Assembly: GCA_016700375.1 (NCBI GenBank)
Contig: CP065016.1
Span: forward strand, 180,001 to 212,000
Direction of reading: 5' to 3'
From: Candidatus Saccharimonadota bacterium
GTDB lineage: Bacteria > Patescibacteriota > Saccharimonadia > Saccharimonadales > UBA4665
Length of the DNA stretch: 32,000 bases
The position numbers and the translations under genes are program-made. Positions 1,528 to 32,000 of the stretch are shown in pieces. Within the stretch, counting starts at the first letter, position 1, and the number at the start of each line of letters is the position of its first letter. The notes below the pieces were generated by a model, which made no database searches, was not told where the DNA came from, and worked only from the letters and a program-made list of their open reading frames with translations.

Positions 1528-4848
<3,321 letters not shown>

Positions 4849-16523: not shown

Positions 16524-16598
16524 TTGCAGCTTTGCGTAGCCCAGCAGTATAGTGAACAAAGAACACGGGTTCGAGGTAGGTATATAACCAAATGGAGG
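16524..16598 (+). promoter_or_regulatory. candidate sigma70-like promoter and Shine-Dalgarno for the rhs gene
   Basis: TTGCAG (16524-16529), an 18-nt spacer, then TATAGT (16548-16553). GGAGG at 16594-16598 lies 5 nt upstream of the ATG at 16604. This is pattern matching only. Confidence 0.3.
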
Positions 16599-19500
16599 CA
16601 ACCATGCACGTACTTCGGTATTTTCGCCCAACAAACCAAAATGAAGTGAAAGCACGGTTTCGAACACCTCTCTCTACCCGCATAATAGCGGCTTTCTTCT
16701 GTCTGTCATTTGTAACGAGTACCTTTATTTCGACAGCGCCAGTCTCTGCCCTATTTGGTATAGGAAGCGATAAAAAACCACGACCGCTCGCTGTTGCAGA
16801 GCAGGGATATATTGACCCGAGCGGAGCCACCGGCCAGGGCACAACTCTTGGCGGCCCAGAGCCGGGCAAACTGCAACAAAAACAGCCACGCAAAGAAGTA
16901 GTTTCCAAACGAACCGCAAGCACCAAGACGTTTGATAACGGAGACGGCACAGCCGAGGTACGCAACTACATGGGCCGGGGGCACTACAAAAGCGGCAACA
17001 ATTGGAAGGACATAGACACCTCCTTGGTGGTAGACACCAACGCGGCAGACAGCTCGAACATACTTGGCGAGGCGCTTTCTTGGGTAAAAGGTAAAACCCA
17101 AGACCTGTCCACGTACAAGGTTGCGGGAAATGACTGGCAAGCCCGGTTTGCCCCCAGTGATGATGCCGTTGGTATGGTGCGTATAGAGGCGGACGGCGTG
17201 AAACTCGTCCTCAGTCCCATGGCTGCCACCCCGGGGGTCACACCCACCATCAAGACTATGCCTGATGGTACCGAAACGGTAACGTACATAAACCTTTGGC
17301 CCGAGACAGACGTTATATACACCGTAAAGAATGACATGCTTAAAGAAGACATTCTGGTCAAAAGCCGCAGCGCCGCGACGAGCTACCGTTTTAAGGTGGC
17401 AGGAGCAAAACTTACCGTTACAAGCGATGGCAGTGTAGCAATCGGGAAAACTAAGCAGACGCTTTCTGCGCTTACTATGGCAACCAGCGCAAGGGGTGTT
17501 ATAGAAAATAGCGGTGTAAAACAATCGGTAAACGGCGACATGTTGACAATATCTTTCGATAAATCTTGGATGAAGTCGCTGAAAGCTAATGATTTTCCCC
17601 TTATAATCGACCCTAGCTGGGGAAGGGGTACCTCAACAGTCAGTTGGAATTACTATGCATACAAGTCGGACGGCACGATTTGCTATTCAAACTCGTGCTT
17701 TATGAATGCAGGCTACCTCTATGACAGAGGCTGGAAGGGCTGGCGAAGTGCGTTTAGGATCGACTTTAATGTTTTGCAGGGCAAACAACTGCTTGATGCG
17801 TACATGCATCTCCACAAATCGCAAAGGAGCTTCTGGACAGGCACAACCGAAGGGCTCTATACCGAGCTTTCACATGCTAACTGTTTAAGCTACAACTGTA
17901 TAGATTATGGTTCTCCAAGGCATAGCGCATGGTTTGGCACCGATGGAGATATAAACTTCACTGCCCTAATGCAAAGTAGAATGAATATTGGCGACTGGGG
18001 TGCTTGGTTCATGCTTAACGGGGAAGAACGTGCCTATACAACGTACAAAGGCTGGGATGCAGACAACTCATATTTTGTGCTCAGCTATAACAGTGGCCCA
18101 GGAATGACGACACCGGTAAGTCCTGCAGACAAACAGGTTGTCGTCACCGACCAACCGCTATTGCAAGTTAACGCCGTCGGTGACCCCGATGGCGATGCGC
18201 CGCAGTACTACTACCGAATCGCAACGAATCCAGATGCCGAAACAGGCAGCGTCATCAACTCTGGTTGGTTACCTGGGCAAACCAGCTTCACCATTCCGGA
18301 AGGAAGGTTACAAGATGGCGTGACGTACTACTGGCACGTCTACACTTGGGACGGCTTTTGGCAAACCAACCCAAACTGGGTGCGCTCGTTCAAATACGAT
18401 GCTCGTCTCGGCAATGATAATACCTCAACACTTGATGATGGCGGGCCGGTAGACGTTAACCTTGCGACCGGTAATGTCACAACCAGCACCGGTTCTCATA
18501 CAACCAGCGCGCTAGGCGGCAGTATCGGCCTCAGCATGACATACAATTCCCCGTACCGGGCAAAATCTGGCTTGTGGTCAACGTACTACAACAATATGTC
18601 ATTCAGCGGCAACCCTGTACTGCAACGGCTTGAAAATGGTTTTAATTTTCCCTGGGGTACTTCTTCGCCCGCGCCGGGTGTAGTGAGCGCAGACGGCTTT
18701 AGTGCAAGATACGCTGGCTACTTTATCGCTCCAAAAACAGCATCCTATGCGTTTGGCTTTACTGCAGACGACAACTACTCTCTGTACCTAAACAATGAAA
18801 CAACCCCAGCCACAACTTCTGGTTGTTGTGCGCAGGGAAATTGGACGATGACTCCCCGTACGTTCACTGAGGGACAAGTTGTCCCATTCCGTTTGGATTA
18901 TTCTGAAGCAGGAGGACCCGGATATCTTCATTACGCCGTGCGGATAGACGGCGTCGAGCAGCAGATCCAACCGCAGTGGATGAAAACAGACCCGCGGCCG
19001 CTCCAAATTTCGAACGGGCTATCTGGCAAATACTACTATGACTCTGGCAGCCACAACTTCCCGAATGATGAATTCAGCTCTTTCCTGCAACGCCGTGAAA
19101 CAAATATGTATTTCAACTGGGGAGAGGGCTCTCCGTTGGCATATGGTCCCACAAATCAGTTCATGGCAAGGTATAGTGGTTTCTTCACGGCACCGGTCGC
19201 TGGCTCATATTATTTTGGTTCAGCGGGTGATGATGGAACACGAATTTTTATCCGTGGCGAAAACACCCCATATCAAAATGACTGGTCCGATCATGGTTGG
19301 CGATTGTCCTATGGTGGAGAAGTACGATTAGAAAAGGGGCAAAGTATCCCAATTACGGCTGATTATTATGAAAATGGTGGCGGGGCCGCTTTTGGATTGT
19401 ACGTAAAAGGAGCGGTTGCCGAGCAAATCATCCCAGCAGCCTGGCTCAGCACAAAGGTAAATCCGCTACCAGAGGGGTGGCAGCTGAGTGTCGATGCCGA

Positions 19501-22500
19501 TGGAGATTTAGCATACGACTATGCTTCTATACAGGCGCAAAGTGTCATTCTGTACGATAGCGAGGGCGACCAGCATGAGTATAAATGGACAGGTAGCAGC
19601 TACGCACCAGCTGCGAATGAGTATGGCGTGCTGACGCGCAATGCCGACGGCACTCTCACGCTTATAGACGCAGACGGCAAGACGTACACGTTTGACAGCG
19701 GTGGGCGCATAACTTCTGTTACGACACCTACCGACGACCGCAAACCGGCGGCGCTGAAATACCGCTATGGCACCTCACATGACCCGGTACAAAACCGCTA
19801 CATAACCCGTTTACTGGAAATAACAGATGGAGTGGACGCAAACCGCTGGGGTAAACTGTTCTATTCTGGCGACACGCAGTGTGGCGCTACCCCGAGCGGC
19901 TATCAGGAGGCACCCGCGAACATGCTCTGCGCCTTCGAAACAAACGATGGCAGGCGCACCGTATTTGCGTACCTAAACGGCCAATTAGCCCGCGTTATTG
20001 CAAACGGCGGAGAAACGGCTACATATGGATACTCAGACTCGTGTGCCCCGAGAGGCCTCAGCTGCGTAATGATGAGCAGCCAGCAGACACCACTCGCCTA
20101 CGACGCCATTAGTGCAGGTGTTCGCGCAGATAACCCAAGCGTAAATAGTGAACTATCTTACGACATCATCGGCCGTGCTCAGGACATCACACTACCGGCC
20201 CCCACCGAAAATGCGTTTCGCGCAAAACATCAGTACAAGTACTTGAACAGCGCTACGCAGACGAAAGAAGTGGGCGAAACTGAACCTATGGGTTATAGCC
20301 AGCGCGTGGAATACGATAGTCTCTACAGAACAACAAAAGCCTACGATAAAACCGGGAAATCCACCATACAGGAGTGGGATGCCGTAAAGGATCTTTTGTA
20401 CAGTGCTACCGATGCAACTGGGCTTAAATCTACCACCATCTACGACCCGAACGACATGCCCGTGGAGTCCTATGGCCCCGCACCAAGCACGTGGTTTGGC
20501 GCAGATAGAAAGCCAACCGCTGCATATCTTTCTCAGGTACCGAGAACTGCTACATCATACGATGAAGGCATGAGTGGGCTGGCAGTGACACTCTATAAAC
20601 CCAAAACGCTTACGGGAGCACCTGTGCTGCACGCTACTCGGTTTAACAATACCCCGTATGCTTCGTTTGGATTTTCTCCAACTGAAGGACCTACCACTCC
20701 ACGCACAAGTGAATATAGCTACACCGCAACTGGAAAAATTCGTATGCAGTATGCTGGAACATACAGCTTTAGAATATGGCATGACGATGGCGTACGCCTG
20801 TATATAGACGACAAGCTCGTCATTAACGATTGGGTAGACGGGGCAGACCGTTATTCTGCTGGCACATTTGTAAATAGTGCTGATAGCTACAAACGCATTC
20901 GCATTGAGTCTTATCATGTTGACAATGGCGCACCCCAAACCATGATTACCCAGCTCTTCTTGGCTACGCCGGGAGGAAGCGAAACCGCAGACGTATCGCC
21001 ATATCTAAAACCCGACTACGGCCTTCAGACGAGTCAGACGGTATATGGGGCTCCTACTGCGACCGGGCAGACTGCGACGCTTACCAGCCGAACCAACTAT
21101 GGCAACAACCCAGAACTTGGGTTAGTAAAGTCGGTCACAACCGATGCCGACGGCCCCCTGAAGCTCGCGGCAACAAGCAATTACGAAGACCTCGCAACCC
21201 TTACCAGCCCAGACAAGTATCTTCGGCAAACAAATAGTAGCCTGCCTGGTGGCGCAACGACCCGGTACGAATACTATGACACCATCAAAAAAGATGCCCA
21301 AGGAAATTACCTGAAAGATGCGGCCGGAAATTGGGCAGCAGCCGACCCCCTTCCGAACCCGTGCGACACTACCAAATCTTACCGCCAGGGCGGCATGCTG
21401 CGGTTAAAGACCGAACCCGACCCAGACGGCAGCGGACCGCAGACTGGCCGGACGGTTGAAACGGTTTACGACGATGCCGGGAAGGTGGTAGCTACCCGCT
21501 ACAATCAAGACGATTGGACGTGCACCACCTACGACACCCGCGAGCGGGTACTCACTACAACCGTACCAGCGTACAACGGTAAACCCGCCAGAACTATCGT
21601 GAATGACTATGCCGTCGGCGGAAACCCGCTCATCACTGGCAGCGGCGACGGCTCCGGTAACATCACTATAGAAACTGACCTGCTCGGCCGAAACGTGAAA
21701 TACACCGATGCAAAAGGCAATGTCACCACCAGCAGCTACGATACCAAGGGTAGGCTGACGCAACGTGTCAGCAAACTCGGCACCGAAGACTACCTGTACG
21801 ACGACTACGACAGGCTAACGGCACAAAAGCTCGACGGAGCCACCTTTGCGAGCATCGCGTACGACGAATTTAGTCGTGTCACGAGCGTGCAATACCCAGC
21901 CGGTCAACGGCTTGACCTTACTCGCGAGAGCACTTCCGCTGGCCTTGGTCGGCTCGTTAAACGCACCTACAACCTTGCCAACGACACGACACTCAGCGAT
22001 GAAGTGAGCCGTGCGGTTACCGGCGATGTGGTGAGTGGCACCGAACTGGGTCAGCCCAAATCCTACAGCTACGACACCGCCGGCAGGCTCGTGGCAGCTA
22101 CCGTAGCTGGCAATACCTTTACTTATGGTTATGGCTCCCAAGACGCAAGCTGCGCCGGTAAACCTGGTGTTGCCACAGACCTATCCCTGGCTGGCAAAGA
22201 TTCAAACAGGACGAGTCAAACGGTCAATGGCGTGAACACTACCTACTGCTACGACCAAGCAGACAGGCTGGTAGCCAGCAGCAATGCTCTCTATGACACT
22301 CCCGAGTACGACAGCCATGGCAATACCACTCGCCTTGGTTCTGGCGACACCACCACCAACTTCACCTACGACAGTAGCGACCGCAACACTGGCATCACCG
22401 AAACGAATGCCTCCGGGAGCATCACCACCACCTACGGACGTGATGTTCAGGGCAGGTTACTTTACCGACATCAGGACACCAACGGAACGAATGTAAGTAA

Positions 22501-23440
22501 TGACTACTACGGCTATACTGCCTCCGGTGACTCCCCGGATTTCATTACAGATGTAAGTGGCACTGTCACACAGAAGTATCTATCGCTTCCTGGAGGGGTT
22601 AAAGTAACCATTCGTCCAGACAGAGCCAGTGCAGGTGCTCTAACATACAGCCTACCCAATATACACGGTGATGTATTTGCGACTATCGATGCAGACGGCA
22701 AGATACTCGGTACTTACCAAACCGGTCCATTTGGAGAGAAGCTACCAAACCAAACCACTCCCTGGAACACCCTAAACGGTGGTACAATGGGATATGTCGG
22801 TGCAGCCCTAAAGCTCACTGAAGCACAGTTAGCACTTCAGCCTATTCAAATGGGAGCGAGGGTATACATACCAGGACTCGGTAGATTCCTTTCCGTTGAC
22901 CCGGTTCAAGGTGGCACACCAAATAACTATGTGTATCCGGGTGACCCGGTGAATAACCACGACCTAACTGGTACGTTAGCTCCACTTGTTGTTGCACTCG
23001 CACCGTTTGTAGGAAGGGTGGCCGTTGGTGCAGCCGTAAAGATGGCTACAAGCTACGGCGGCAAGAAAGTAGCCCAGCAAGCGGTAACGAAAAGCGTAGC
23101 GAAGAGTGCGACGAAAACGATTACAAATCATGTAGAAAAATCACCCGTAAAGCAGGCGCAAATCGTTAAGAACGCCCAGCAAGGAAGGGCAGCAGAGCAG
23201 CAGGTTAGAAACCAATTGGCAGCTAAATATGGCGAGAAAAATGTAATCAATAAGCCGTATTATAAAACAGAAGCAGGAAGGAGATACCCAGATTTTCAAA
23301 TATTACAGAATAACTCCCCTGTCTTCAATGTAGAAGTAAAGAGTGGTAATGCGATTTATGGAGGAAGCCAATTATATAAAGATGGACTTATATTTGAGGA
23401 AACTGGTATACCAACGTTCCTGATTAGGGTGCCGTCATGA
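16592..23440 (+). CDS. full-length Rhs/YD-repeat polymorphic toxin (signal peptide, beta-rich N-region, 3x PA14, YD shell, Rhs core, nuclease-like C-terminal toxin)
   Basis: 2,282-aa uninterrupted ORF. The likelier start is the ATG at 16604, given the SD. It carries many YD-type repeats (YDxxGR/YxYDxxxRL). The Rhs-associated core ends in MGARVYIPGLGRFLSVDPVQGGTPNNYVYPGDPVNNHDLTG. The C-terminal tip is variable. Confidence 0.95.
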   Translation: MEATMHVLRYFRPTNQNEVKARFRTPLSTRIIAAFFCLSFVTSTFISTAPVSALFGIGSDKKPRPLAVAEQGYIDPSGATGQGTTLGGPEPGKLQQKQPRKEVVSKRTASTKTFDNGDGTAEVRNYMGRGHYKSGNNWKDIDTSLVVDTNAADSSNILGEALSWVKGKTQDLSTYKVAGNDWQARFAPSDDAVGMVRIEADGVKLVLSPMAATPGVTPTIKTMPDGTETVTYINLWPETDVIYTVKNDMLKEDILVKSRSAATSYRFKVAGAKLTVTSDGSVAIGKTKQTLSALTMATSARGVIENSGVKQSVNGDMLTISFDKSWMKSLKANDFPLIIDPSWGRGTSTVSWNYYAYKSDGTICYSNSCFMNAGYLYDRGWKGWRSAFRIDFNVLQGKQLLDAYMHLHKSQRSFWTGTTEGLYTELSHANCLSYNCIDYGSPRHSAWFGTDGDINFTALMQSRMNIGDWGAWFMLNGEERAYTTYKGWDADNSYFVLSYNSGPGMTTPVSPADKQVVVTDQPLLQVNAVGDPDGDAPQYYYRIATNPDAETGSVINSGWLPGQTSFTIPEGRLQDGVTYYWHVYTWDGFWQTNPNWVRSFKYDARLGNDNTSTLDDGGPVDVNLATGNVTTSTGSHTTSALGGSIGLSMTYNSPYRAKSGLWSTYYNNMSFSGNPVLQRLENGFNFPWGTSSPAPGVVSADGFSARYAGYFIAPKTASYAFGFTADDNYSLYLNNETTPATTSGCCAQGNWTMTPRTFTEGQVVPFRLDYSEAGGPGYLHYAVRIDGVEQQIQPQWMKTDPRPLQISNGLSGKYYYDSGSHNFPNDEFSSFLQRRETNMYFNWGEGSPLAYGPTNQFMARYSGFFTAPVAGSYYFGSAGDDGTRIFIRGENTPYQNDWSDHGWRLSYGGEVRLEKGQSIPITADYYENGGGAAFGLYVKGAVAEQIIPAAWLSTKVNPLPEGWQLSVDADGDLAYDYASIQAQSVILYDSEGDQHEYKWTGSSYAPAANEYGVLTRNADGTLTLIDADGKTYTFDSGGRITSVTTPTDDRKPAALKYRYGTSHDPVQNRYITRLLEITDGVDANRWGKLFYSGDTQCGATPSGYQEAPANMLCAFETNDGRRTVFAYLNGQLARVIANGGETATYGYSDSCAPRGLSCVMMSSQQTPLAYDAISAGVRADNPSVNSELSYDIIGRAQDITLPAPTENAFRAKHQYKYLNSATQTKEVGETEPMGYSQRVEYDSLYRTTKAYDKTGKSTIQEWDAVKDLLYSATDATGLKSTTIYDPNDMPVESYGPAPSTWFGADRKPTAAYLSQVPRTATSYDEGMSGLAVTLYKPKTLTGAPVLHATRFNNTPYASFGFSPTEGPTTPRTSEYSYTATGKIRMQYAGTYSFRIWHDDGVRLYIDDKLVINDWVDGADRYSAGTFVNSADSYKRIRIESYHVDNGAPQTMITQLFLATPGGSETADVSPYLKPDYGLQTSQTVYGAPTATGQTATLTSRTNYGNNPELGLVKSVTTDADGPLKLAATSNYEDLATLTSPDKYLRQTNSSLPGGATTRYEYYDTIKKDAQGNYLKDAAGNWAAADPLPNPCDTTKSYRQGGMLRLKTEPDPDGSGPQTGRTVETVYDDAGKVVATRYNQDDWTCTTYDTRERVLTTTVPAYNGKPARTIVNDYAVGGNPLITGSGDGSGNITIETDLLGRNVKYTDAKGNVTTSSYDTKGRLTQRVSKLGTEDYLYDDYDRLTAQKLDGATFASIAYDEFSRVTSVQYPAGQRLDLTRESTSAGLGRLVKRTYNLANDTTLSDEVSRAVTGDVVSGTELGQPKSYSYDTAGRLVAATVAGNTFTYGYGSQDASCAGKPGVATDLSLAGKDSNRTSQTVNGVNTTYCYDQADRLVASSNALYDTPEYDSHGNTTRLGSGDTTTNFTYDSSDRNTGITETNASGSITTTYGRDVQGRLLYRHQDTNGTNVSNDYYGYTASGDSPDFITDVSGTVTQKYLSLPGGVKVTIRPDRASAGALTYSLPNIHGDVFATIDADGKILGTYQTGPFGEKLPNQTTPWNTLNGGTMGYVGAALKLTEAQLALQPIQMGARVYIPGLGRFLSVDPVQGGTPNNYVYPGDPVNNHDLTGTLAPLVVALAPFVGRVAVGAAVKMATSYGGKKVAQQAVTKSVAKSATKTITNHVEKSPVKQAQIVKNAQQGRAAEQQVRNQLAAKYGEKNVINKPYYKTEAGRRYPDFQILQNNSPVFNVEVKSGNAIYGGSQLYKDGLIFEETGIPTFLIRVPS
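16604..16750 (+). other. Sec-type signal peptide / N-terminal anchor of the Rhs protein
   Basis: A long basic n-region (MHVLRYFRPTNQNEVKARFRTPLSTR) is followed by a hydrophobic core (IIAAFFCLSFVTSTFISTAPVSA) with an A-x-A-like end (VSA|LF). Confidence 0.6.
18566..18984 (+). other. PA14 domain 1 of Rhs protein
   Basis: GLWSTYYNNMSFSGNPV...FNFPWG...DGFSARYAGYFIAPKTASYAFGFTADDNYSLYLNNE. This is the classic PA14 signature (GLxxxYY..., F-S-x-R-x-x-G-x-F, DD..xLxL). Confidence 0.7.
19013..19450 (+). other. PA14 domain 2 of Rhs protein
   Basis: GLSGKYYYDSG...MYFNWGEGSP...NQFMARYSGFFTAPVAGSYYFGSAGDDGTRIFIRGE...YYENGGGAAFGLYV. Confidence 0.75.
19540..22972 (+). other. YD-repeat shell plus Rhs-associated core, ending at the DPVNNHDLTG motif (22943-22972)
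   Basis: Repeats include LYDSEGDQHEYKW, DADGKTYTFDSGGRITSV, YDSLYRTTKAYDKTGKST, YDDAGKVVATRY, YTDAKGNVTTSSYDTKGRLTQ, YSYDTAGRLVAAT, YCYDQADRLVAS and FTYDSSDRNTGI. The core signature is R-V-Y-x-P-x-L-G-R-F-L-S-V-D-P. Confidence 0.85.
20567..20965 (+). other. PA14 domain 3 of Rhs protein
   Basis: GLAVTLYKPKTLTGAPV...YSYTATGKIRMQYAGTYSFRIWHDDGVRLYIDDKLVINDW...IRIESYH. It is inserted within the YD-repeat region. Confidence 0.65.
22056..23116 (+). repeat. direct repeat copy A (main rhs 3' core + post-core linker)
   Basis: It pairs with 26203-27263 at a constant offset of 4,147 nt. I count 17 mismatches by manual comparison, with an uninterrupted identical run at 22091-22608. Confidence 0.9.
23117..23437 (+). 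other. C-terminal toxin tip 1: PD-(D/E)xK (restriction-endonuclease-fold)-like nuclease
   Basis: Motif order is GRAAEQQV (E), RRYPDFQIL (PD), FNVEVKSGNA (ExK), GGSQLYKD (Q). This is the first segment unique to the main gene after the region it shares with orphan 2. Confidence 0.6.
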
Positions 23441-24675: not shown

Positions 24676-24764
24676 ACGTGGTTTATCCTCGTGCAGATAA
24701 CAACGATGTGAACTCCCACTTTGACTATCGTATTTGCTACACTAAACCTGTTGCACCTTTAATC
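24676..24764 (+). repeat. junction/leader element copy J1 (parts A+B)
   Basis: acgtggtttatcct (part A) and gatgtgaactcccactttgactatcgtatttgctacactaaacc (part B) recur at 30418-30431 and 30564-30607. Part B also recurs at 26042-26068. Confidence 0.75.
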
Positions 24765-25700
24765 GACTACTACGGCTACACTGCCTCCGGTGACTCCCCA
24801 GATTTCATTACAGACATATCCGGAAACGTCACCGAGAAGTACCTGACCCTGCCAGGTGATGTCCTGGTCACCATCCGACCCTCTCGCCAAAGTGCCGGAG
24901 CACTTACCTATAGTCTACCCAACATCCATGGAGATATCTTTGCGACAGTTGATGCCGATGGAAAGATACTTGGCACCTACCAAACGGGACCATTTGGAGA
25001 GAAACTACCCATAGCACAAACAGGCCAGGTAGCAGGCCAGACAACTACTCAGTGGAATACCCTGAATGGTGCCAGCTTTGCATATGTCGGCCAACATGAG
25101 AAACTAAATGAAGTAGCACTAGCTACGGCACCTGTACAAATGGGCGCTAGAGTGTACATCCCTGGGCTTGGACGGTTCCTGTCTGTTGACCCTATGCCCG
25201 GCGGAACACCTAATTTATATGCTTATACGTCTGATCCAGTAAATGAATTTGATTTAGACGGTAATTGGCCGAGCTTCAAGTCAGTAGTAAAATGGACCAC
25301 ACGTATCGCGGTAGTAGCATCGTTTGTGCCTGGTCCGATTGGAATGATTGGAAGCGGAGTAGCCGCTGCTGGATATGCCTATCAGGGACAAAAAGGAAAA
25401 GCCGCTGCTGCACTAGTTGGCTTCATACCAGGAGGAAAACTAATCTCTAAGGTAGCATCCAAGAGTGGAATGGCGTCAAAGTTAATGACGAAAGTTCTCA
25501 CTGCTCAGGCAAAAGCGAAGGGAATAGGTACAAATAGTAAGCTATTCGGTACACACGGACAGGGGATACTTAATAGTGGCAGATATAGAATAGGGTGGTC
25601 AAAAGATCAGAGCTTTGTAGCATGGCGCATAGGTCAACCAGGTAAACACAATCATTTTATGAATCTTAGAACTAGCATAAAATGGAGAGGTTATAGATGA
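24678..25700 (+). CDS. orphan Rhs C-terminal cassette 1 (core fragment + unrecognised toxin tip)
   Basis: 340-aa ORF with a GTG start of uncertain reality. From 24765 it parallels the main gene (DYYGYTASGDSPDFITD...YSLPNIHGD...GPFGEKL...MGARVYIPGLGRFLSVDP...DPVNEFDLDG, motif at 25233-25262). A unique tip follows. Confidence 0.8.
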   Translation: MVYPRADNNDVNSHFDYRICYTKPVAPLIDYYGYTASGDSPDFITDISGNVTEKYLTLPGDVLVTIRPSRQSAGALTYSLPNIHGDIFATVDADGKILGTYQTGPFGEKLPIAQTGQVAGQTTTQWNTLNGASFAYVGQHEKLNEVALATAPVQMGARVYIPGLGRFLSVDPMPGGTPNLYAYTSDPVNEFDLDGNWPSFKSVVKWTTRIAVVASFVPGPIGMIGSGVAAAGYAYQGQKGKAAAALVGFIPGGKLISKVASKSGMASKLMTKVLTAQAKAKGIGTNSKLFGTHGQGILNSGRYRIGWSKDQSFVAWRIGQPGKHNHFMNLRTSIKWRGYR

Positions 25701-26041
25701 ACCCGATTGACATTATGTACAAATACGCACTAGGGGTGTTTGGTGAAAAACGAGTCCAGCGGACAAAGAATGAACTAGGAGCAATTGACATATACATCCA
25801 CCCCAATATTTCAACAGTTATGACGAACTGTTACCACCCAAGACTAGTACATATCTCCAGTGATGGTGAGTATTACTGGATGTCAATAGATGATTTCCAG
25901 TGGGAGTTTGACGATAATACACAGAATTTTCTTAAAACAACACCAGCCTACCTTGATGCAGTAAAAGATAATACTCTTTACGTTTCAGCTGTGAACATTG
26001 GGAAATTTAAGCTATTTAAAAAATTGGAGATTAAGCTCTAG
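25697..26041 (+). CDS. putative immunity protein for orphan cassette 1
   Basis: 114 aa. It has an ATGA overlap with the upstream toxin ORF, is AT-rich and acidic, and matches no recognised family. Confidence 0.65.
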   Translation: MNPIDIMYKYALGVFGEKRVQRTKNELGAIDIYIHPNISTVMTNCYHPRLVHISSDGEYYWMSIDDFQWEFDDNTQNFLKTTPAYLDAVKDNTLYVSAVNIGKFKLFKKLEIKL

Positions 26042-26192
26042 TTTCACCGCGTTTTGCTACACTTAAACGATAAGTATCTACGCCGCAGCGACCCCACTAA
26101 AAGCTATGCACTTAAGTCGTCCCGAAGGGAAGCTTGATGCCTATGCTCGGTATAAGTCACTGACCATAGATAGGGCGAGGAAAAGAACCAAA
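26042..26192 (+). repeat. junction/leader element copy J2 (partial B + part C)
   Basis: tttcaccgcgttttgctacacttaaac aligns with part B. A 64-nt spacer then precedes cctatgctcggtataagtcactg (26140-26162), which is identical to 30678-30700. Confidence 0.75.
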
Positions 26193-27584
26193 CTCGGCCA
26201 GGCCAAATCCTACAGCTACGATACCGCCGGCAGGCTTGTGGCAGCTACCGTAGCTGGCAATACCTTTACTTATGGTTATGGCTCCCAAGACGCAAGCTGC
26301 GCCGGTAAACCTGGTGTTGCCACAGACCTATCCCTGGCTGGCAAAGATTCAAACAGGACGAGTCAAACGGTCAATGGCGTGAACACTACCTACTGCTACG
26401 ACCAAGCAGACAGGCTGGTAGCCAGCAGCAATGCTCTCTATGACACTCCCGAGTACGACAGCCATGGCAATACCACTCGCCTTGGTTCTGGCGACACCAC
26501 CACCAACTTCACCTACGACAGTAGCGACCGCAACACTGGCATCACCGAAACGAATGCCTCCGGGAGCATCACCACCACCTACGGACGTGATGTTCAGGGC
26601 AGGTTACTTTACCGACATCAGGACACCAACGGAACGAATGTAAGTAATGACTACTACGGCTATACTGCCTCCGGTGACTCCCCGGATTTCATTACAGATG
26701 TAAGTGGCACTGTCACACAGAAGTATCTATCGCTTCCTGGAGGGGTTAAAGTAACTATTCGTCCAGACAGAGCCAGTGCAGGTGCTCTAACATACAGCCT
26801 ACCCAATATACACGGTGATGTATTTGCGACTATCGATGCAGACGGCAAGATACTCGGTACTTACCAAACCGGTCCATTTGGAGAGAAGCTACCAAACCAA
26901 ACCACTCCCTGGAACACCCTAAACGGTGGTACAATGGGATATGTCGGTGCAGCCCTAAAGCTCACTGAAGCACAATTAGCACTTCAGCCCATACAAATGG
27001 GAGCGAGGGTATACATACCAGGACTCGGAAGATTCCTTTCCGTTGACCCAGTACAAGGTGGTACACCAAATAACTATGTGTATCCAGGTGACCCGGTGAA
27101 CAACTATGACCTAACTGGCACATTAGCTCCACTTGTTGTTGCACTCGCACCGTTTGTAGGAAGAGTGGCCGTTGGTGCAGCCGTAAAGATGGCTACAAGC
27201 TACGGCGGCAAGAAAGTAGCCCAGCAAGCGGTAACGAAAAGCGTAGCGAAGAGTGCGACGAAAGCAACAGTTAGACAGGAAGCGAAGGCATCAATACCCC
27301 AAGGCACAAAGCAGGGACTGTACAGTTTCAATGAAAATGGAAGGCAGTACATTGGTAAATCTGTCAACGTACCGAATAGGATTAACACTCATATAGCAAC
27401 CGGAAAGTACCAAGGCGGTGAATTGACAGTAAAGCCCATGCCAGGGGCTACAAACTTGCAGCTTCGTGTTGGCGAACAAACATGGATTAATCGATGTGGG
27501 GGCATCTGTGGCGGTGACCTAAGTAACAAAATTAACTCTGTGAGACCAGAACTTTGGGACCCACTTAGTATTCCTGGCCCGTAA
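26106..27584 (+). CDS. orphan Rhs C-terminal cassette 2 (long core fragment + GIY-YIG-like nuclease tip)
   Basis: 492-aa ORF. Positions 26203-27263 are ~98% identical to 22056-23116 of the main gene. The unique tip (27264-27581) reads GLYSFNENGRQYIGKSVNVPNRINTHI...RVGEQTWIN, matching the GIY...YIG...R...H...E...N order of GIY-YIG nucleases. Confidence 0.85.
   Translation: MHLSRPEGKLDAYARYKSLTIDRARKRTKLGQAKSYSYDTAGRLVAATVAGNTFTYGYGSQDASCAGKPGVATDLSLAGKDSNRTSQTVNGVNTTYCYDQADRLVASSNALYDTPEYDSHGNTTRLGSGDTTTNFTYDSSDRNTGITETNASGSITTTYGRDVQGRLLYRHQDTNGTNVSNDYYGYTASGDSPDFITDVSGTVTQKYLSLPGGVKVTIRPDRASAGALTYSLPNIHGDVFATIDADGKILGTYQTGPFGEKLPNQTTPWNTLNGGTMGYVGAALKLTEAQLALQPIQMGARVYIPGLGRFLSVDPVQGGTPNNYVYPGDPVNNYDLTGTLAPLVVALAPFVGRVAVGAAVKMATSYGGKKVAQQAVTKSVAKSATKATVRQEAKASIPQGTKQGLYSFNENGRQYIGKSVNVPNRINTHIATGKYQGGELTVKPMPGATNLQLRVGEQTWINRCGGICGGDLSNKINSVRPELWDPLSIPGP
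26203..27263 (+). repeat. direct repeat copy B (orphan 2)
   Basis: See copy A. The duplicated alternative-frame ORFs 22284..22496/26431..26643 and 22513..22701/26660..26848 in the ORF track confirm the 4,147-nt offset. Confidence 0.9.
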
Positions 27585-27596
27585 CTGGAGAAAAGA

Positions 27597-27935
27597 ATGG
27601 ATTGGATTTTAAGCTACCCTGAAAAGACGACACGTCAATTATTAAGAGACATATATGATGCTAACCCTTCGGGTTTTGGGAGGGCTAGAGAAATAACCTT
27701 TGTCTTGACGCATATAAAAGACCAAGATGTTGAAATTCTACTCAACGAGCTACACGAAAAAAACTGGGCGACATCGTACTTAAAAAAGACGCCCCATCAT
27801 AGCTCGACAGTGGAATGTCTCCGACGAAACTATGTGCTGGACAACCTCCAGCTCCAGCTTGATGAGAAATATTTTAGTATGCTTGCAAACAAATACGAAA
27901 TAACGTTCGATGGTTGGTTTACCGAGATTGTTTAG
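27597..27935 (+). CDS. putative immunity protein for orphan cassette 2
   Basis: 112 aa. A GGAG-containing 12-nt gap follows the toxin stop. It is AT-rich, and its position is consistent with an immunity gene. Confidence 0.65.
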   Translation: MDWILSYPEKTTRQLLRDIYDANPSGFGRAREITFVLTHIKDQDVEILLNELHEKNWATSYLKKTPHHSSTVECLRRNYVLDNLQLQLDEKYFSMLANKYEITFDGWFTEIV

Positions 27936-28861
27936 CGCTAACGCTGAAAGCCTCAGGCGCAGTCTACTCCATAAAGAACTTCCACGGCGACACCGCGCTC
28001 ACCGTCAACGCGGCCGGTGTCCCGACCAGTTCCGTGCACCTTTACGACCCATTTGGGCAGACAGCACCGAGTGCAGCTTTTGGCACCGGCGGCTACGGTG
28101 GTTCTCCCAAAGACCCCAGCAATAGCTCAAACGAAGCAATGGCCTGGGCAGCTCACCCAAGCCGGAAGGCAGAAGCCAGCGACCTCTTTACCATACCCAT
28201 CATTCAAATGGGAGCAAGAGTATACCTACCAACCCTTGGCAGATTCCTACAGGTAGACCCCATAGAAGGTGGTACAGCCAATGCGTATGTGTATGCACTC
28301 GACCCGATTAATCAGAGTGATTATAGCGGTATGTTCGTATTCGCAATTGCTGCAGCGGTACCATTCATCGCTGCCGCCGCAGTTGTTGCGGCAACAGCGG
28401 TAATAAGTAGTCCTAGCGCTGTAAGAGCAAGACAGGGGGCTGCAAAAAGCATTGCGAATGCAGTAGACAATACATGGAATAAAATCGGAGCATCACTAAA
28501 ATCGCAAGCTCAACCAAAGGCAATAACAAACCCAGTCGCTCCCCCAAAACAATGCAACACGTACACTCTGGCGCCTCCACCTTATGCAGGTGTAAAGTAT
28601 CCTTCTGCAAGTGCCTCGAACTATGCACAAAAACAAGCGGCTATTACGAGTACTCAATCCCTTCTTGCAATCGGGATTAGTCCGGGAGGTTTTCCGATTA
28701 TGGGCAGTGGTCAACCAAAACGTCTTGACAACCCCCTTTACGCAAATGGTTGGACAAAATATAGTGTGCCCTATCCGGCTAATGACTTTGAAGTGCACTA
28801 CAACCTTAATACTATTACATGCCAGTACGCTGATTTAAAGACAAAGGAAGGGCTATACTAA
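27914..28861 (+). CDS. orphan Rhs C-terminal cassette 3 (divergent core lineage + unrecognised toxin tip)
   Basis: 315-aa ORF. The TTG start lies inside the upstream immunity gene and is probably not real. Rhs-core similarity starts right after the immunity stop at ~27936 (NFHGDTALTV...YDPFGQ...IIQMGARVYLPTLGRFLQVDPIEGGTANAYVYALDPINQSDYSG). The tip spans 28331-28858. Confidence 0.75.
   Translation: MVYRDCLALTLKASGAVYSIKNFHGDTALTVNAAGVPTSSVHLYDPFGQTAPSAAFGTGGYGGSPKDPSNSSNEAMAWAAHPSRKAEASDLFTIPIIQMGARVYLPTLGRFLQVDPIEGGTANAYVYALDPINQSDYSGMFVFAIAAAVPFIAAAAVVAATAVISSPSAVRARQGAAKSIANAVDNTWNKIGASLKSQAQPKAITNPVAPPKQCNTYTLAPPPYAGVKYPSASASNYAQKQAAITSTQSLLAIGISPGGFPIMGSGQPKRLDNPLYANGWTKYSVPYPANDFEVHYNLNTITCQYADLKTKEGLY
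28271..28329 (+). repeat. 59-nt core-end repeat, copy 1
   Basis: ggtacagccaatgcgtatgtgtatgcactcgacccgattaatcagagtgattatagcgg matches 29306-29364 with 2 mismatches. Confidence 0.85.
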
Positions 28862-28866
28862 CAGAT

Positions 28867-29274
28867 ATGCTATTACTCACGAACAAAGATATCGTCGACT
28901 ATGGACCGATACTTCGCTTAAAGCGGGGAACCCTGTGCATATCTTTTGCCGAAAGTCATGATGCGGAAGAAGGAAGTAGAGTAGCAGTATTACCGCTAGA
29001 ATTTAACTATGAAAATGAAGATATTGACCCAATATTTTTCGCTATGGAGAATTTTGATATTGTCGCTGACTTTACCTCAGAAAAATGGATTACAAAAAAG
29101 GTTGAGAATAATACGCACACCGAGATTTCTTCATTTCTCGAATGGTTTAATGGCGGCTTCTGGTATCGCGCACATGACTGGAGCTTAAATGGGGAAGACT
29201 ACAGAACTATTAGAACATATTTCGAAGAATACAAATCGGTCTATTCTGCATGGCTCGAAAGCATAGAAAAGTAA
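28867..29274 (+). CDS. putative immunity protein for orphan cassette 3
   Basis: 135 aa, 5 nt after the toxin stop. It is AT-rich and acidic, with no recognised family. Confidence 0.65.
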   Translation: MLLLTNKDIVDYGPILRLKRGTLCISFAESHDAEEGSRVAVLPLEFNYENEDIDPIFFAMENFDIVADFTSEKWITKKVENNTHTEISSFLEWFNGGFWYRAHDWSLNGEDYRTIRTYFEEYKSVYSAWLESIEK

Positions 29275-29305
29275 ATACCCAAATCTAAATTGACCCATAA
29301 AAGTC

Positions 29306-29364
29306 GGTACAGCCAATGCCTATGTGTATGCGCTCGACCCGATTAATCAGAGTGATTATAGCGG
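29306..29364 (+). repeat. 59-nt core-end repeat, copy 2
   Basis: It encodes GTANAYVYALDPINQSDYSG, the only Rhs-core remnant of cassette 4. Confidence 0.85.
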
Positions 29365-29956
29365 GCAGGGACTGTTTGGATTCCTGACAGCAGCAGTGGC
29401 AATCGTAAAGTATGCGGTCACAAACTACTCATCAAACAAATACGTGGCAGCAGCAACAAAAATTATTGCACCAGTGGTAAATGCGGTGAAGAGTATTGTT
29501 GCAGCAGCGCCAGCAGCCCAAGTCAGTGCAAAAACAGCCCCACCAGCAGTTAAACAGATTAATAGCATCTATCCAAAAGAAAGACTTGATTTCGGAAAGC
29601 TGAAACCAGAAAATAGGATTGGTGCGAATCCTTCGGCCCCCGTCTCATATCAAACAACACAAGTATCGGCAACTTTTTGCTTTGTATTCTGCGGGGATGT
29701 TGGACTGTCATCGGACGGCAGCGGCATACACCTTACGATTGGATATTCTCTCGGGCAAAGGTATGGAATATCCGCTGGTGTTGGAGGAGGACCTGGTAGG
29801 GTTGATACTGGTGGGCATGCTAACATTTCTTGCTCCGCTGGATTACTAGGAGGCGAGTTTAGCTCAGATGGTCTAAATAGCAACAGCTTTTCAGCTATGT
29901 TTAATTTTGTGCCTACTCAAGCAGGTTGTAGCTCAGGGCCAAGTGTGACCTTTTAA
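29324..29956 (+). CDS. orphan Rhs cassette 4 (14-residue core remnant + Gly-rich unrecognised toxin tip)
   Basis: 210-aa ORF with a fortuitous GTG start. The sequence runs YALDPINQSDYSG, then a hydrophobic helix (GLFGFLTAAVAIVKYAV), an Ala/Pro-rich linker, and a Gly/Ser-rich C-terminal half (GYSLGQRYGISAGVGGGPGRVDTGGHANISCSAGLLGGEF). Confidence 0.7.
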   Translation: MYALDPINQSDYSGQGLFGFLTAAVAIVKYAVTNYSSNKYVAAATKIIAPVVNAVKSIVAAAPAAQVSAKTAPPAVKQINSIYPKERLDFGKLKPENRIGANPSAPVSYQTTQVSATFCFVFCGDVGLSSDGSGIHLTIGYSLGQRYGISAGVGGGPGRVDTGGHANISCSAGLLGGEFSSDGLNSNSFSAMFNFVPTQAGCSSGPSVTF

Positions 29957-29977
29957 ATATACACAAACGGAGGTGTT

Positions 29978-30433
29978 ATGAGTAAAGAGTTAAAGTTTAC
30001 CGGTTCAGGAGTGAATGCACCAAGTATAAAAGTTTCCCTCGCTCGCGCAAGTGAGTCACCGTCAAAATCATCGTTCACCGTAGGTGCTACTTGGCCGTTC
30101 GTTACATTAACATTGGGGAAAAAACGTGTAGAGTTTCGAATGCCAGGTGTTATCAAATTTGCAACAGCAACTGACAGTAAAATAACGTTAAGCAAGCTAG
30201 GCTACCTTTTCTTCCGCTCTGCTGACCCAAATAACGATTTCGGCTTTTCCACCTTAGCTTTAAATAGACTAATAGTAGGGTTAAAAGCAATGGGCTTTGA
30301 ACTTGACAGCACATGTATAACTAATCTAAAGATCGCTAGATTGTTCCATGTCATATTTTTGTCTTTTGGCTTACTCTTCCTAGCCTGTGTATTCGCGGTG
30401 ATGTTTGCAACAGGTACACGTGGTTTATCCTAG
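29978..30433 (+). CDS. putative immunity protein for cassette 4, C-terminally membrane anchored
   Basis: 151 aa. A good SD (aacGGAGGtgttATG) is present. There is a C-terminal hydrophobic helix (LFHVIFLSFGLLFLACVFAVMFA). Its last codons run into junction part A. Confidence 0.7.
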   Translation: MSKELKFTGSGVNAPSIKVSLARASESPSKSSFTVGATWPFVTLTLGKKRVEFRMPGVIKFATATDSKITLSKLGYLFFRSADPNNDFGFSTLALNRLIVGLKAMGFELDSTCITNLKIARLFHVIFLSFGLLFLACVFAVMFATGTRGLS

Positions 30434-30727
30434 TACAGAGAGCGCTGGTGTGAATCTGACCCACGCGCACTTTTTCCCAAATAATGGGATTTGAGGGATT
30501 TGAGGATTTGAGGACTGTCCTCTAGCAGGAGGATTTGAGGACTGTCCTCTAGCAGCTAGCGGCAATGTGAATTCCCCATTTCACTATCATTTTTGCTACA
30601 CTAAACCATAACCATGTACACCGCCGCGGCCGCATTTCAGCCTTTGCAATCCACTCGCTCTTCTCGCAATTTCGCTTCCTATGCTCGGTATAAGTCACTG
30701 GCAATTGGCCGAACAAGACAGAGAGGT
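30418..30727 (+). repeat. junction/leader element copy J5 (A + inserted repeats + B + C)
   Basis: This is the most complete copy: A at 30418-30431, B at 30564-30607, and C core cctatgctcggtataagtcactg at 30678-30700. About 132 nt lie between A and B, where copy J1 has 15 nt. Confidence 0.75.
30487..30555 (+). repeat. short tandem/direct repeats inside J5
   Basis: ggatttgag occurs three times in tandem (30487-30512). The 24-nt unit gatttgaggactgtcctctagcag then occurs twice (30505-30528 and 30532-30555). Each unit contains the mini-hairpin gagga-ctg-tcctc. Confidence 0.8.
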
Positions 30728-30879
30728 CATGGCAATACACCCGCCTTGGCTTTGGTGCAAACGGCACACCCCAAACGTACTTCACATACGACTCGTCAGA
30801 CCGCAACACCGGCATCACCGAAACCAACGCCACTGGCTCCATCACCACCACCTACGGTCGTGATGTCCAGGGCAGGCTC

Positions 30880-31842
30880 TTGTACCGTCACCAAGATACC
30901 AATGGCAGCAGTGCCAGCAATGACTACTACGGCTACACCGCCTCCGGTGACTCCCCAGATTTCATTACAGATGTAAGTGGCACTGTCACACAGAAGTATC
31001 TATCGCTTCCTGGAGGGGTTAAAGTAACTATTCGTCCAGACAGAGCTAGTGCAGGTGCTCTAACATACAGCCTACCCAATATACACGGAGATGTATTTGC
31101 GACTGTTGATGCAGACGGGAAGATACTAAACACCCATCAAAGCGGACCTTTCGGAGAGAAGCTAGCGAACCAAACCACTCCCTGGAACACCATTAGTGGT
31201 GGTACAATGGGATATGTCGGTGCAGCCCTAAAGCTCACTGAAGCACAGTTAGCACTTCAGCCTATTCAAATGGGAGCGAGGGTATACATACCAGGACTCG
31301 GTAGATTCCTTTCCGTTGACCCGGTTCAAGGTGGCACACCAAATAACTATGTGTATCCAGGTGACCCGGTGAATCAATACGACTTAAATGGAATGTGGGT
31401 GAGCCTATTGATTAAATTATTTGTAAGAGAAGGTGGTAAGCAAACAGTTAAGCAGACCGGAAAGGAAACCGTAAAACGGGGCGCAACAAAAGTTGCCACT
31501 AAAGTACAAAAAACAGGTGCTAATCAGACTATCCCCATTTCGAGTAGTACACAAAACGTGAATATCACTATAAAGTATAGTCGCCCAAACAACGCTACTA
31601 CGATAGCCCAAAGAGTGAGCGTGCAAAATAAGCCTTGTGTGACTTGTGGCATACAGGGACAGAAAAACTACGCAGACCATATCCAACCGCTCGTAAAAGA
31701 ATATTATCAGACAGGGACAATAGATCGTGTAAGGATGAGATCAATAGAGTCCGTACAGCCCCAATGTCCAAGCTGCTCAAATATTCAAGGTGGAAATTTA
31801 AGTAATTATAGTCGGGAAATGATAGATTATTATGGTTTATAA
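30880..31842 (+). CDS. orphan Rhs C-terminal cassette 5 (core fragment + HNH/EndoVII GH-E-like nuclease tip); upstream leader frame-shifted
   Basis: In-frame Rhs homology extends upstream to the stop at 30691. Nucleotide similarity to the main gene starts at 30728. There is no ATG; the track start is a TTG. The core ends at DPVNQYDLNG (to 31392). The tip contains KPCVTCG...ADHIQPLV...QPQCPSCSNIQGG, i.e. a C-x2-C...DH...N...C-x2-C HNH-like layout. Confidence 0.7.
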   Translation: MYRHQDTNGSSASNDYYGYTASGDSPDFITDVSGTVTQKYLSLPGGVKVTIRPDRASAGALTYSLPNIHGDVFATVDADGKILNTHQSGPFGEKLANQTTPWNTISGGTMGYVGAALKLTEAQLALQPIQMGARVYIPGLGRFLSVDPVQGGTPNNYVYPGDPVNQYDLNGMWVSLLIKLFVREGGKQTVKQTGKETVKRGATKVATKVQKTGANQTIPISSSTQNVNITIKYSRPNNATTIAQRVSVQNKPCVTCGIQGQKNYADHIQPLVKEYYQTGTIDRVRMRSIESVQPQCPSCSNIQGGNLSNYSREMIDYYGL

Positions 31843-32000
31843 TTCAAATAATATTGCTGTAAAACTTGAACAAAACACTTTGTGCAAGAAGTATAATGCT
31901 GAGTATTTGGAAGCCGCACCCGGCACGATAGTAGGTGTAGCAAAAGATTTCTCTATGGCAAAAATGCCAATAAACGGCTTGCGGCATCCCCGAGAAAAGA
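31832..32000 (+). CDS. putative immunity protein for cassette 5 (partial, runs off the right edge)
   Basis: The ATG at 31832 overlaps the toxin 3' end by 11 nt. The frame stays open to the window end (MVYNSNNIAVKLEQNTLCKKYNAEYLEAAPGTIVGVAKDFSMAKMPINGLRHPREK...). Confidence 0.55.
   Translation, partial: MVYNSNNIAVKLEQNTLCKKYNAEYLEAAPGTIVGVAKDFSMAKMPINGLRHPREK

Follow-up and report, generated by a model that had tools for sequence, protein, structure and literature searches.

In the rhs-CT/rhsI loci of Enterobacteria (Dickeya dadantii, E. coli and Salmonella Typhimurium LT2) the full-length rhs gene is accompanied on the same strand by fragments of its 3' core, each carrying its own C-terminal tip and immunity gene. 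The orphan modules are found fused to full-length genes in other strains, and recombination between main and orphan cores is the route of their deployment (PMC3150448, PMC3967940). WapA of Bacillus subtilis and Streptococcus suis is a very large Rhs protein of monoderm bacteria with an N-terminal signal and a pre-toxin segment, and its gene is followed by an immunity gene and truncated 'Rhs orphans' with tips (PMC12704120). Orphans behind Sec-type Rhs genes have thus already been described in S. suis. For Saccharibacteria, the 2018 genome of 'T. rhizospherense' was reported to encode a 2487-aa Rhs/YD/PA14 'possible secreted toxin' with a neighbouring immunity gene (PMC6031116); in the literature we found neither Rhs orphan arrays nor an exchange of tips between strains described for Saccharibacteria or other bacteria of the candidate phyla radiation (CPR). 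Here we analyzed a stretch of 32,000 nt from a Candidatus Saccharibacteria genome (contig CP065016.1; hereafter the window), of which positions 16592-32000 are occupied by an Rhs locus. Its same-strand core fragments with tips and immunity genes, the recurrence of its orphan modules on full-length genes of other strains and the proposed deployment by core recombination correspond to the enterobacterial loci, and its very large signal-bearing protein with pre-toxin segments and downstream orphans corresponds to WapA. We consider it very probable that the locus encodes polymorphic Rhs toxins and follows the plan of the Sec-dependent WapA-type Rhs systems of monoderm bacteria. The arrangement is known from other bacteria; new are the lineage, the clear comparative evidence for displacement and the unannotated toxin/immunity families.

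The locus contains one full-length rhs open reading frame (ORF) of 6849 nt (2282 amino acids, aa), joined via an ATGA overlap to an immunity ORF of 177 aa and followed by five cassettes, all on the plus strand. Related loci and strains used for comparison are designated by L-numbered contigs; those covering individual junctions are independent contigs from other sequencing runs. The modules are as follows:

16592-23440, plus strand: full-length rhs gene, encoding a hydrophobic signal-like segment, three PA14 domains, YD/RHS repeats, the Rhs core and a C-terminal tip
22973-23437, plus strand: main tip, with a 48-aa hydrophobic Lys-rich pre-toxin segment, then a predicted PD-(D/E)xK-type nuclease domain
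23437-23970, plus strand: putative main immunity gene, GC content 0.354, in ATGA overlap with rhs
24759-25700, plus strand: cassette 1 (ORF 24678-25700), core 24759-25262 (about 73-77% aa identity to the main core), tip 25263-25700
25697-26041, plus strand: putative immunity gene 1, 114 aa, in ATGA overlap with cassette 1, GGAGAGG upstream; junction confirmed in contig L087
26106-27584, plus strand: cassette 2, 492-aa ORF, intact, starting at an ATG of its own with a 27-aa leader (QQS69719.1, hypothetical protein)
27597-27935, plus strand: putative immunity gene 2, 112 aa, after a 12-nt gap, RraB-like (PF06877, 24.4 bits against a cut-off of 23.3)
27914-28861, plus strand: cassette 3, 'type II' core 27950-28330, tip 28331-28861 with a hydrophobic start
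28867-29274, plus strand: putative immunity gene 3, 135 aa, acidic, after a 5-nt gap; assigned by position and coupling
29294-29956, plus strand: cassette 4 (ORF 29324-29956), type II core-end remnant 29294-29364 (71 nt), tip 29366-29956
29978-30433, plus strand: putative immunity gene 4, 151 aa, after a 21-nt gap, GGAGG upstream, C-terminal membrane segment at aa 117-150
30545-31842, plus strand: cassette 5 (ORF 30880-31842), with a junction element, leader ATG at 30614, core 30728-31392 and tip 31393-31842
31832-32000, plus strand: start of putative immunity gene 5, in 11-nt overlap with cassette 5, Imm33-like (PF24719, 34.4 bits against a cut-off of 27), cut by the window edge

A first-pass annotation of the window had proposed this layout of six modules with their overlaps and gaps, and every coordinate was reproduced by our ORF map. 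The small AT-rich ORF that it assigned to each cassette is borne out by a gradient in GC content: the cores have 0.49-0.54, the tips 0.40-0.48 and the small ORFs 0.35-0.41. It had also suspected a reduced-genome episymbiont. The window proteins (QQS69704-QQS69723, locus tags IPP75_010xx) match a Candidatus Saccharibacteria genome with a contig of 1,256,494 bp, in agreement with this suspicion, and the three closest full-length Rhs homologues in a set of species-representative genomes are saccharibacterial as well. Every protein of the locus is annotated as hypothetical in the NCBI record. The array was further expected to run past the right edge; as its end cannot be read from the window, we inferred the continuation from synteny with related strains, where contigs L088 and L091 match up to base 32000 and have at least two additional cassettes beyond it. 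The contig collection did not contain an exact 45-mer taken from the window end, and exact look-ups with the cassette-5 protein (in two start choices), immunity protein 3 and the DNA ligase gave no hit.

Aligned as proteins, the six 3' ends have just one invariant block in common, Y..DP(V/I)N..D..G, and unrelated sequence begins right after its final G. The block is invariant in the six window copies and in 113 copies across related loci; the DP(V/I)Nxx(D)xxG motif previously noted at the end of each core fragment was accordingly found in six out of six. The core end itself is a variant of the canonical PxxxxDPxGL demarcation, in which two DPxGL motifs stand 17 residues apart (PMC8636562); it is composed of DPVQG, 16 residues and D(L/Y)xG, with D and G invariant in all window copies and in all matched relatives. 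Different C-terminal tips had been claimed for the modules. Six distinct tips are indeed present, except that the main tip and the cassette-2 tip have their first 48 residues in common, a hydrophobic helix plus a Lys-rich stretch, and diverge only afterwards. A third toxin domain stands behind the same 48-aa segment in L091. Since one segment thus precedes three toxin domains, the tips are bipartite, as in CdiA-CT. A hydrophobic segment opens five of the six window tips and about 55% of 110 tips of the family, and the IPGPIGM-type segment of cassette 1 recurs ahead of many different C-terminal ends.

The orphans keep 933, 665, 504, 381 or 71 nt of core. DNA identity to the main gene is 98% for cassette 2 (1077 nt), 87.5% for cassette 5 (665 nt), 73% for cassette 3 (111 nt) and 68% for cassette 1 (487 nt); the 71 nt of cassette 4 (about 24 codons) are of the cassette-3 rather than the main-gene type. 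All structural elements of the displaced-tip (orphan) architecture claimed in the first-pass annotation are present, and tip 4 is found on the full-length genes of L088, L089 and L090. The profile searches that it had proposed matched PA14, RHS_repeat and TIGR03696, as well as toxin or immunity families for part of the modules.

The full-length protein contains three PA14 stretches (Pfam, E=5e-43), a match to RHS_repeat (PF05593, E=2.8e-8, 34.4 bits against a cut-off of 22) and YD..G(R/K)(L/I/V) motifs at aa 1032-1827. The Rhs-associated core TIGR03696 was detected at aa 2046-2127 (nt 22727-22972) with 41.9 bits against a cut-off of 32.5; besides the main gene, cassettes 1, 2, 3 and 5 exceeded the curated cut-off of this profile (41.9-45.8 bits, aligned to the model end), and TIGR01643 matched in cassette 2. 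A hydropathy scan revealed just two hydrophobic segments in the main protein, at aa 25-51 and aa 2124-2150. The former is preceded by a basic stretch and followed by VSA, and the Rhs homologue of L003 has a classical signal ending in AYA. By this heuristic the N-terminus of the main Rhs is signal-like, consistent with Sec export; none of the orphan cassettes showed a signal segment in the same scan. Profile searches gave no match to PAAR, LXG or WXG domains in the main Rhs, and no LysM/CWB wall-binding repeats and no srtB- or secF-like neighbours were found. Two start codons are possible for rhs, which differ by four residues: ATG 16592, preceded by TATATA, and ATG 16604, with GGAGG at the right distance. 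Gene callers chose the start at 16592 in the window and in related contigs.

A word-indexed homologue search with the main toxin domain returned nothing; an exhaustive search of a representative library later gave 52 homologues of the main tip. D107, E121 and K123 are invariant in an alignment of 41 sequences, and the relatives match DUF4143 (10), NERD (8) and SfsA RE, some of them residing on RHS or Tox-PAAR-like proteins. The invariant triad together with these relatives indicates that the main tip is a predicted PD-(D/E)xK nuclease. The adjacent immunity protein gave no family match in Pfam/TIGR profile searches. It is identical beside the same tip in the Logan contig L001, with one synonymous and no non-synonymous difference.

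Among the orphans, cassette 1 (TIGR03696, 45.8 bits) carries a tip composed of a hydrophobic pre-toxin segment of the IPGPIGM type and a very basic part at the C-terminus. In the more distant genome L003 a full-length Rhs of 2786 aa ends in the same tip type (48% identity), which is also present in more than 10 other loci; a word-indexed search yielded 3 homologues. The core of cassette 2 (26187-27119) is 98% identical to main-gene 22040-22972, and in its tip (27120-27584) the shared pre-toxin segment is followed by a GIY-YIG-like domain (E=0.0026, below cut-off), a family that is significant in 4 other tips. Immunity protein 2 is identical in 3 Logan contigs, with 3 synonymous and no non-synonymous differences to L084. 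The type II core of cassette 3 has only 38-41% aa identity to the main core, contains the motif YALDPINQSDYSG and matches TIGR03696 with 45.8 bits. Its end (28259-28329) is 93% identical to the remnant in cassette 4. Tip 4 is Gly/Ser-rich and belongs to a rare family, with 2 homologues among 5.8 billion proteins in a word-indexed search. The corresponding immunity gene occurs beside tip 4 in L081 (42% identity) and in L088-L091 (93%), and no other small ORF of the locus encodes a membrane segment, a hint that the toxin of tip 4 may be directed at membranes. Cassette 5 has its leader ATG (30614) out of frame owing to a 1-nt deletion near 30742; in L088 and L091 the ORF is intact (406 aa), the tip is 100% identical and the immunity gene is complete (123 aa). 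Tip 5 is HNH/NinG-like (NinG, E=4.6e-5, 23.8 bits, slightly below cut-off). Main tip, tip 2 and tip 5 gave no meaningful match to sequences of solved structures. By sequence and arrangement, tips and small ORFs look like toxin/immunity pairs, with predicted toxicity and neutralization.

Close relatives have the context of AAA kinase, YgjP-like protein, histidine kinase and rhs in common with the window (contigs including L088 and L092), so that homologous loci could be compared between strains. The first 1221 residues of the Rhs proteins of L088, L089 and L090 are 89% identical to the window, the C-terminal shell only 44%. In these strains the full-length gene ends in a type II core fused to tip 4 (94% aa identity), followed by immunity 4, and behind it come cassette 5, intact with 406 aa, the complete Imm33-like gene and further cassettes. 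The 3' core of the full-length L088 gene and the cassette-3 core of the window share 97.7% DNA identity. The type II core and tip 4 at the end of the L088-type genes thus mark cassettes 3 and 4 of the window as what, judged by this comparison, are the remains of a former full-length 3' end, displaced by a block with a new shell end, core and tips. The final third of the main gene (20586-22972, shell end and core) is not orthologous to L088/L092, with 44% against 89% protein identity. Exchange therefore affects shell blocks of more than 2 kb and not tips alone. L092, which encodes an identical histidine kinase protein, has a Tox-REase-9 tip.

Another intermediate is found in L084, where cassette 2 and immunity 2 are followed by the cassette-3 core fused straight to tip 4. 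This strain is without exactly the 1035-bp unit of tip 3 and immunity 3, and the crossover lies inside the 71-nt core-end repeat. Judged from these end states, a single tip/immunity unit has evidently been gained or lost by recombination in the core-end repeat. Behind immunity 4, L084 encodes a 122-aa protein with multiple membrane segments (2771-3139) in place of cassette 5; therefore, the right limit of the array differs between strains. In a comparison of cassette 4 between the window (29366-30433) and L084 (1687-2718), tip 4 differs at 5 of 588 nt and immunity 4 at 64 of 420 nt (ratio of non-synonymous to synonymous substitution rates, dN/dS, 0.26), with the 3' end of the latter replaced. 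This mosaic suggests either a breakpoint between toxin and immunity gene or a diversifying replacement of the immunity allele.

Within the window, the main gene and cassette 2 share a repeat of 1077 nt with 21 mismatches, which are clustered at both ends; the central 737 nt (22091-22827) have one mismatch and include an exact run of 518 nt. The pattern is conversion-like, as recent gene conversion would leave it.

Substitutions in the cassettes also point to constraint. Relative to the L088-type strains, tip 4 has a dN/dS of 0.06 (54 synonymous and 14 non-synonymous differences), a comparison that mixes an orphan with an expressed lineage. Values were 0.10 for tip 2, 0.08-0.13 for the cassette-3 core and 0.26-0.27 for immunity 4, all from small samples. 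The tip-5 proteins of L088 and L091 are 100% identical to that of the window, against about 91% DNA identity over the entire matched stretch. The compared cassettes show the signature of purifying selection.

Two further elements are located between the modules:

23976-24646, minus strand: IS200-type element, 671 bp, between the main immunity gene and cassette 1; tnpA 24060-24497
24670-24748, plus strand: junction element, about 75 nt long, with TTTGCTACACTAAAC (an extended -10-like box) at its end

The tnpA product matches Y1_Tnp (E=5e-38), and palindromes lie near both ends of the element. In L001, a Logan contig that is 98.7% identical, 23975 is joined straight to 24647 and represents the empty site. 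The IS200 element is therefore 671 bp long, was inserted without target duplication and is polymorphic between strains.

Copies of the junction element were found at 26053-26067 and 30545-30607, together with a partial copy at 30412-30455 overlapping the end of immunity 4. The element thus precedes cassettes 1, 2 and 5, of which cassettes 2 and 5 also have a common leader with an ATG. Outside the window and the Logan contigs of close relatives it was not found, so it is no family-wide feature. The sequence GTGGTTTATCCT, considered as an independent motif, was not above chance on its own; it is the 5' part of the junction element. Directly upstream of the cassette-5 copy (30486-30555), GGATTTGA is repeated three times, followed by two perfect copies of a 27-nt unit (GAGGATTTGAGGACTGTCCTCTAGCAG) that contains the palindrome GAGGAC-T-GTCCTC.

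Between the box TGCTACACT of the junction element and the box upstream of 10792 there is a difference of one base; the former lies 11 nt before the leader ATG of cassette 5. Elsewhere in the window, boxes of the TGnTATACT type end 6-10 nt before the starts at 955 (minus strand), 1528, 4967, 8065, 10792, 13960 and 15374. Shine-Dalgarno motifs are mostly missing at these genes, while several immunity genes of the array do carry GGAG-type motifs. The short distance of the boxes to the starts and the scarcity of Shine-Dalgarno motifs suggest that leaderless mRNAs, or mRNAs with very short leaders, are the norm in this genome. A scan of the locus for generic sigma-70 promoters and terminators returned counts equal to the shuffled expectation and is thus uninformative; the idea of promoters within the array rests on the genome's own TGnTATACT pattern. 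Cassettes 1, 3 and 4 have GTG or TTG starts only, without a ribosome-binding motif, whereas the leader ATG downstream of the promoter-like box is the start of cassette 2 and, in related strains, also of cassette 5. Given the start codon of cassette 2 and the boxes at three cassettes, at least the immunity genes may be independently transcribed. It is plausible that three orphan units, cassette 1, cassettes 2-4 and cassette 5 onward, are transcribed on their own. The further-reaching idea that the orphans are not silent, with the junction element acting as a promoter and the array as a series of independently transcribed immunity (plus truncated-toxin) operons, is a tentative one that we think could be right but would not bet on. 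The cassette boundaries may in addition be preferred recombination joints.

Taken together, these data can be accommodated in a mechanism whose steps are modelled on Rhs, WapA and Tc proteins (PMC8636562, PMC12704120, PMC3150448, PMC3967940). The Rhs protein would be exported by Sec through its N-terminal hydrophobic segment and displayed on the surface, where the PA14 domains would bind surface glycans of a neighbouring cell. The YD shell would encapsulate the tip, and an aspartyl autoprotease in the core, at DPVQG-(16)-D(L/Y)xG, would release it. The hydrophobic N-terminal segment of the tip might aid the crossing of the target membrane, after which the C-terminal toxin domain, a nuclease in most cases, would kill cells lacking the matching immunity protein. 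Orphan immunity genes would protect against neighbours deploying those tips. Orphan tips could constitute a reservoir that is moved onto the full-length gene by homologous recombination in the core repeats (cassettes 2, 5 and 1). Judged by the strain comparison, the main gene acquired new 3' ends, and the old one, type II core with tip 4, was pushed downstream. For cassettes 3 and 4 a reservoir function in this strain is doubtful. They share too little DNA with the main gene, which makes a role in immunity more plausible.

Several observations weigh against the reading of the locus as a WapA-like toxin system with a usable reservoir. Toxicity, neutralization, export, autocleavage and the identity of the target cell are all deduced, and for the signal peptide the evidence is a single hydropathy scan. 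The second protease motif is D(L/Y)xG and not the canonical DPxGL. Core identity to the main gene runs 77, 99, 41, (remnant) and 94% in array order. A simple newest-first displacement series was rejected because these values are not monotonic along the array. The cores of cassettes 3 and 4 are too divergent from the main gene (73% over 111 nt) for easy homologous exchange. Tips 1, 3 and 4 and four of the small ORFs gave no family match in profile searches, and structure predictions were unusable, with a predicted local distance difference test score (pLDDT) of 41.7 for tip 1 (alignment of 4 sequences) and 39.7 for the main toxin domain alone.

Three other explanations have to be weighed. The Rhs protein could be mainly a host-directed weapon or adhesin, whose PA14 domains bind the wall of the actinobacterial host and whose tip damages or kills the host for nutrients. 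The presence of three PA14 domains of a carbohydrate-binding type fits this proposal, as does the organism's membership in an obligately epibiotic group (Saccharibacteria; PMC13622651), and nuclease tips acting in the cytoplasm require immunity of the producer whatever the target is. The immunity genes would then protect the producer only before export, and such a role would be compatible with kin competition. However, orphan immunity genes belonging to toxins without export signals are under purifying selection, which is best explained by toxins of neighbouring relatives, and replacement of tips between strains at one locus is a signature of intraspecific antagonism in known systems (PMC3150448, PMC3967940); nor does anything in the sequence identify a receptor. 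We therefore regard a mainly host-directed function as unlikely, though it deserves to be kept in mind. Considerably less probable is that the downstream cassettes are inert debris of rearrangements, with no function as toxin, immunity or reservoir. Truncated core fragments without a signal peptide, the frameshift upstream of the tip in cassette 5, the mere 71 nt of core in cassette 4 and the IS200 element inside the array might all be read in this way. Yet the reading frames of the five tips and of the small ORFs are all open, every compared cassette with enough substitutions has a dN/dS well below 1, Shine-Dalgarno-like motifs lie ahead of immunity genes and the modules serve as active 3' ends of full-length genes in other strains. 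Even the cassette-5 frameshift may be a homopolymer error of what is probably a long-read assembly, as the ORF is intact in L088 and L091.

Finally, the array or a part of it could be an assembly artefact of collapsed or chimeric repeats. The long repeat shared by the main gene and cassette 2 would invite such an error. Short-read Logan contigs do break at it (L001 starts at 22925, L087 ends at 26531 and L086 starts at 27234), and the pairing of left and right flanks across the repeat has no independent contig. Several junctions are nevertheless reproduced independently: main tip-immunity-cassette 1 in L001, cassette 1-immunity 1-cassette 2 in L087, cassette 2-immunity 2-cassette 3 in L084, L085 and L086, cassette 4-immunity 4-cassette 5 leader in L083 (100% identity), and the whole stretch from cassette 4 via cassette 5 up to the window edge in L088 and L091. 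The junction between immunity 3 and cassette 4 is spanned by no independent contig. The source contig is 1.26 Mb long, a size suggestive of long reads, and the alternative pairing would turn a 4147-bp unit into a circle or a tandem amplification and remove no component of the locus. An artefact is thus the least probable of the explanations, and we consider it very remote. Because the near-identical 737-nt tract breaks short-read contigs, the source assembly determines which of the two tips, main or cassette 2, is placed on the full-length gene. The polymorphic, WapA-like toxin locus therefore remains the reading that we prefer.

The 16 kb upstream of rhs have a housekeeping character, encoding an NAD-dependent ligase, Ham1, a D-Ala-D-Ala carboxypeptidase, aminopeptidase P, a solute-binding protein, an FAD oxidase, three tRNAs and a histidine kinase; no secretion-system genes were found among them. 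The genes just upstream of rhs code for the histidine kinase, a YgjP-like protein and an AAA kinase. The tRNA genes are the following:

11414-11497, minus strand: tRNA-Leu (CAG)
13748-13832, plus strand: tRNA-Leu (GAG)
13844-13920, plus strand: tRNA-Val (TAC)

Beyond these three tRNAs, an Rfam scan of the whole window detected no family at threshold.

We also surveyed the wider family by scanning metagenomes with the core end, which gave 185 relatives, of which 78 loci were kept. The N-terminal and PA14 regions are conserved at 31-55% identity in loci with enough flank. Of the 30 loci in which a full-length gene is followed by at least 3 kb of sequence, 11 carry orphans, with one to five orphan core ends per locus; the window has the most. 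Known toxin domains among 92 distinct tips were GIY-YIG (4), Ntox21 (3), barnase-type ribonuclease (2), Ntox33, HNH, VRR-NUC and HSDR_N. Among 86 ORFs directly downstream of tips the known immunity families were Barstar (3), CdiI_N and Imm8.

In Saccharibacteria, obligate epibionts with roughly 1-Mb genomes, mutual competition and the harm done to the hosts are little understood; some of them are now genetically manipulable. Devoting more than 15 kb (more than 1.2% of the genome) to one deployable toxin plus spares argues that contact-dependent antagonism is a strong selective force, and among close relatives the locus is hypervariable. The strain series of window, L084, L088, L092 and L001 preserves intermediates of tip displacement, gain or loss of a single cassette and IS insertion that are rarely seen so clean. 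The locus also yields unannotated families of tips and immunity proteins (tips 1, 3 and 4), one of them with a predicted membrane-anchored immunity protein. If the promoter-like boxes are true promoters, then, taken with a Sec-exported Rhs that bears PA14 domains, epibiotic Saccharibacteria would wage contact-dependent warfare on rival epibionts on a shared host surface and keep in a 1.26-Mb genome an expressed 'immunity library' against the toxins of their neighbours.

How the locus departs from the described systems can be stated for each of them. The enterobacterial Rhs proteins belong to diderm cells and are exported by type VI secretion (PAAR/VgrG), whereas here a signal-like N-terminus and PA14 domains are present and type VI parts are absent. 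Their demarcation motif is PxxxxDPxGL, compared to DP(V/I)N..D..G here. The Salmonella LT2 orphan lacks initiation signals (PMC3967940), unlike this array, where three orphans have a promoter-like junction element and one its own ATG. Rhs1 of Photorhabdus laumondii and the Tc toxins contain two Asp motifs spaced as DPLGL-17 aa-DPLGL (PMC8636562); the counterpart here is DPVQG-16 aa-DLTG directly before the tip. In contrast to Photorhabdus Rhs1, the second Asp motif is without the Pro and the final Leu, and cleavage is predicted. Arrays of CdiA-CT/CdiI orphans (PMC3150448) likewise consist of tandem toxin/immunity modules behind a demarcation motif with bipartite tips for entry and toxicity. 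CdiA, however, a filament with a VENN motif that diderm bacteria export by two-partner secretion, has no sequence relationship to the shell and core found here.

WapA has LysM or other wall-binding repeats, DNRLRE and, in streptococci, adjacent srtB/secF-like genes, none of which is present here, where a histidine kinase lies upstream. Since wall-binding repeats and such neighbours are missing, we filed the protein as WapA-like and not as a WapA orthologue. The pre-toxin segments are hydrophobic helices or of the IPGPIGM type, with no PT-TG match found, in contrast to WapA, and the PA14 domains stand in place of the WapA wall-binding region. Closest by lineage is the gene pair of 'T. rhizospherense', which by its description likewise combines RHS/YD and PA14 with an adjacent immunity gene. 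That report devotes one sentence to one gene pair, without an orphan array, tip typing or a strain comparison (PMC6031116), whereas the present locus is an array of at least five orphans with tips typed in part, followed across related strains.

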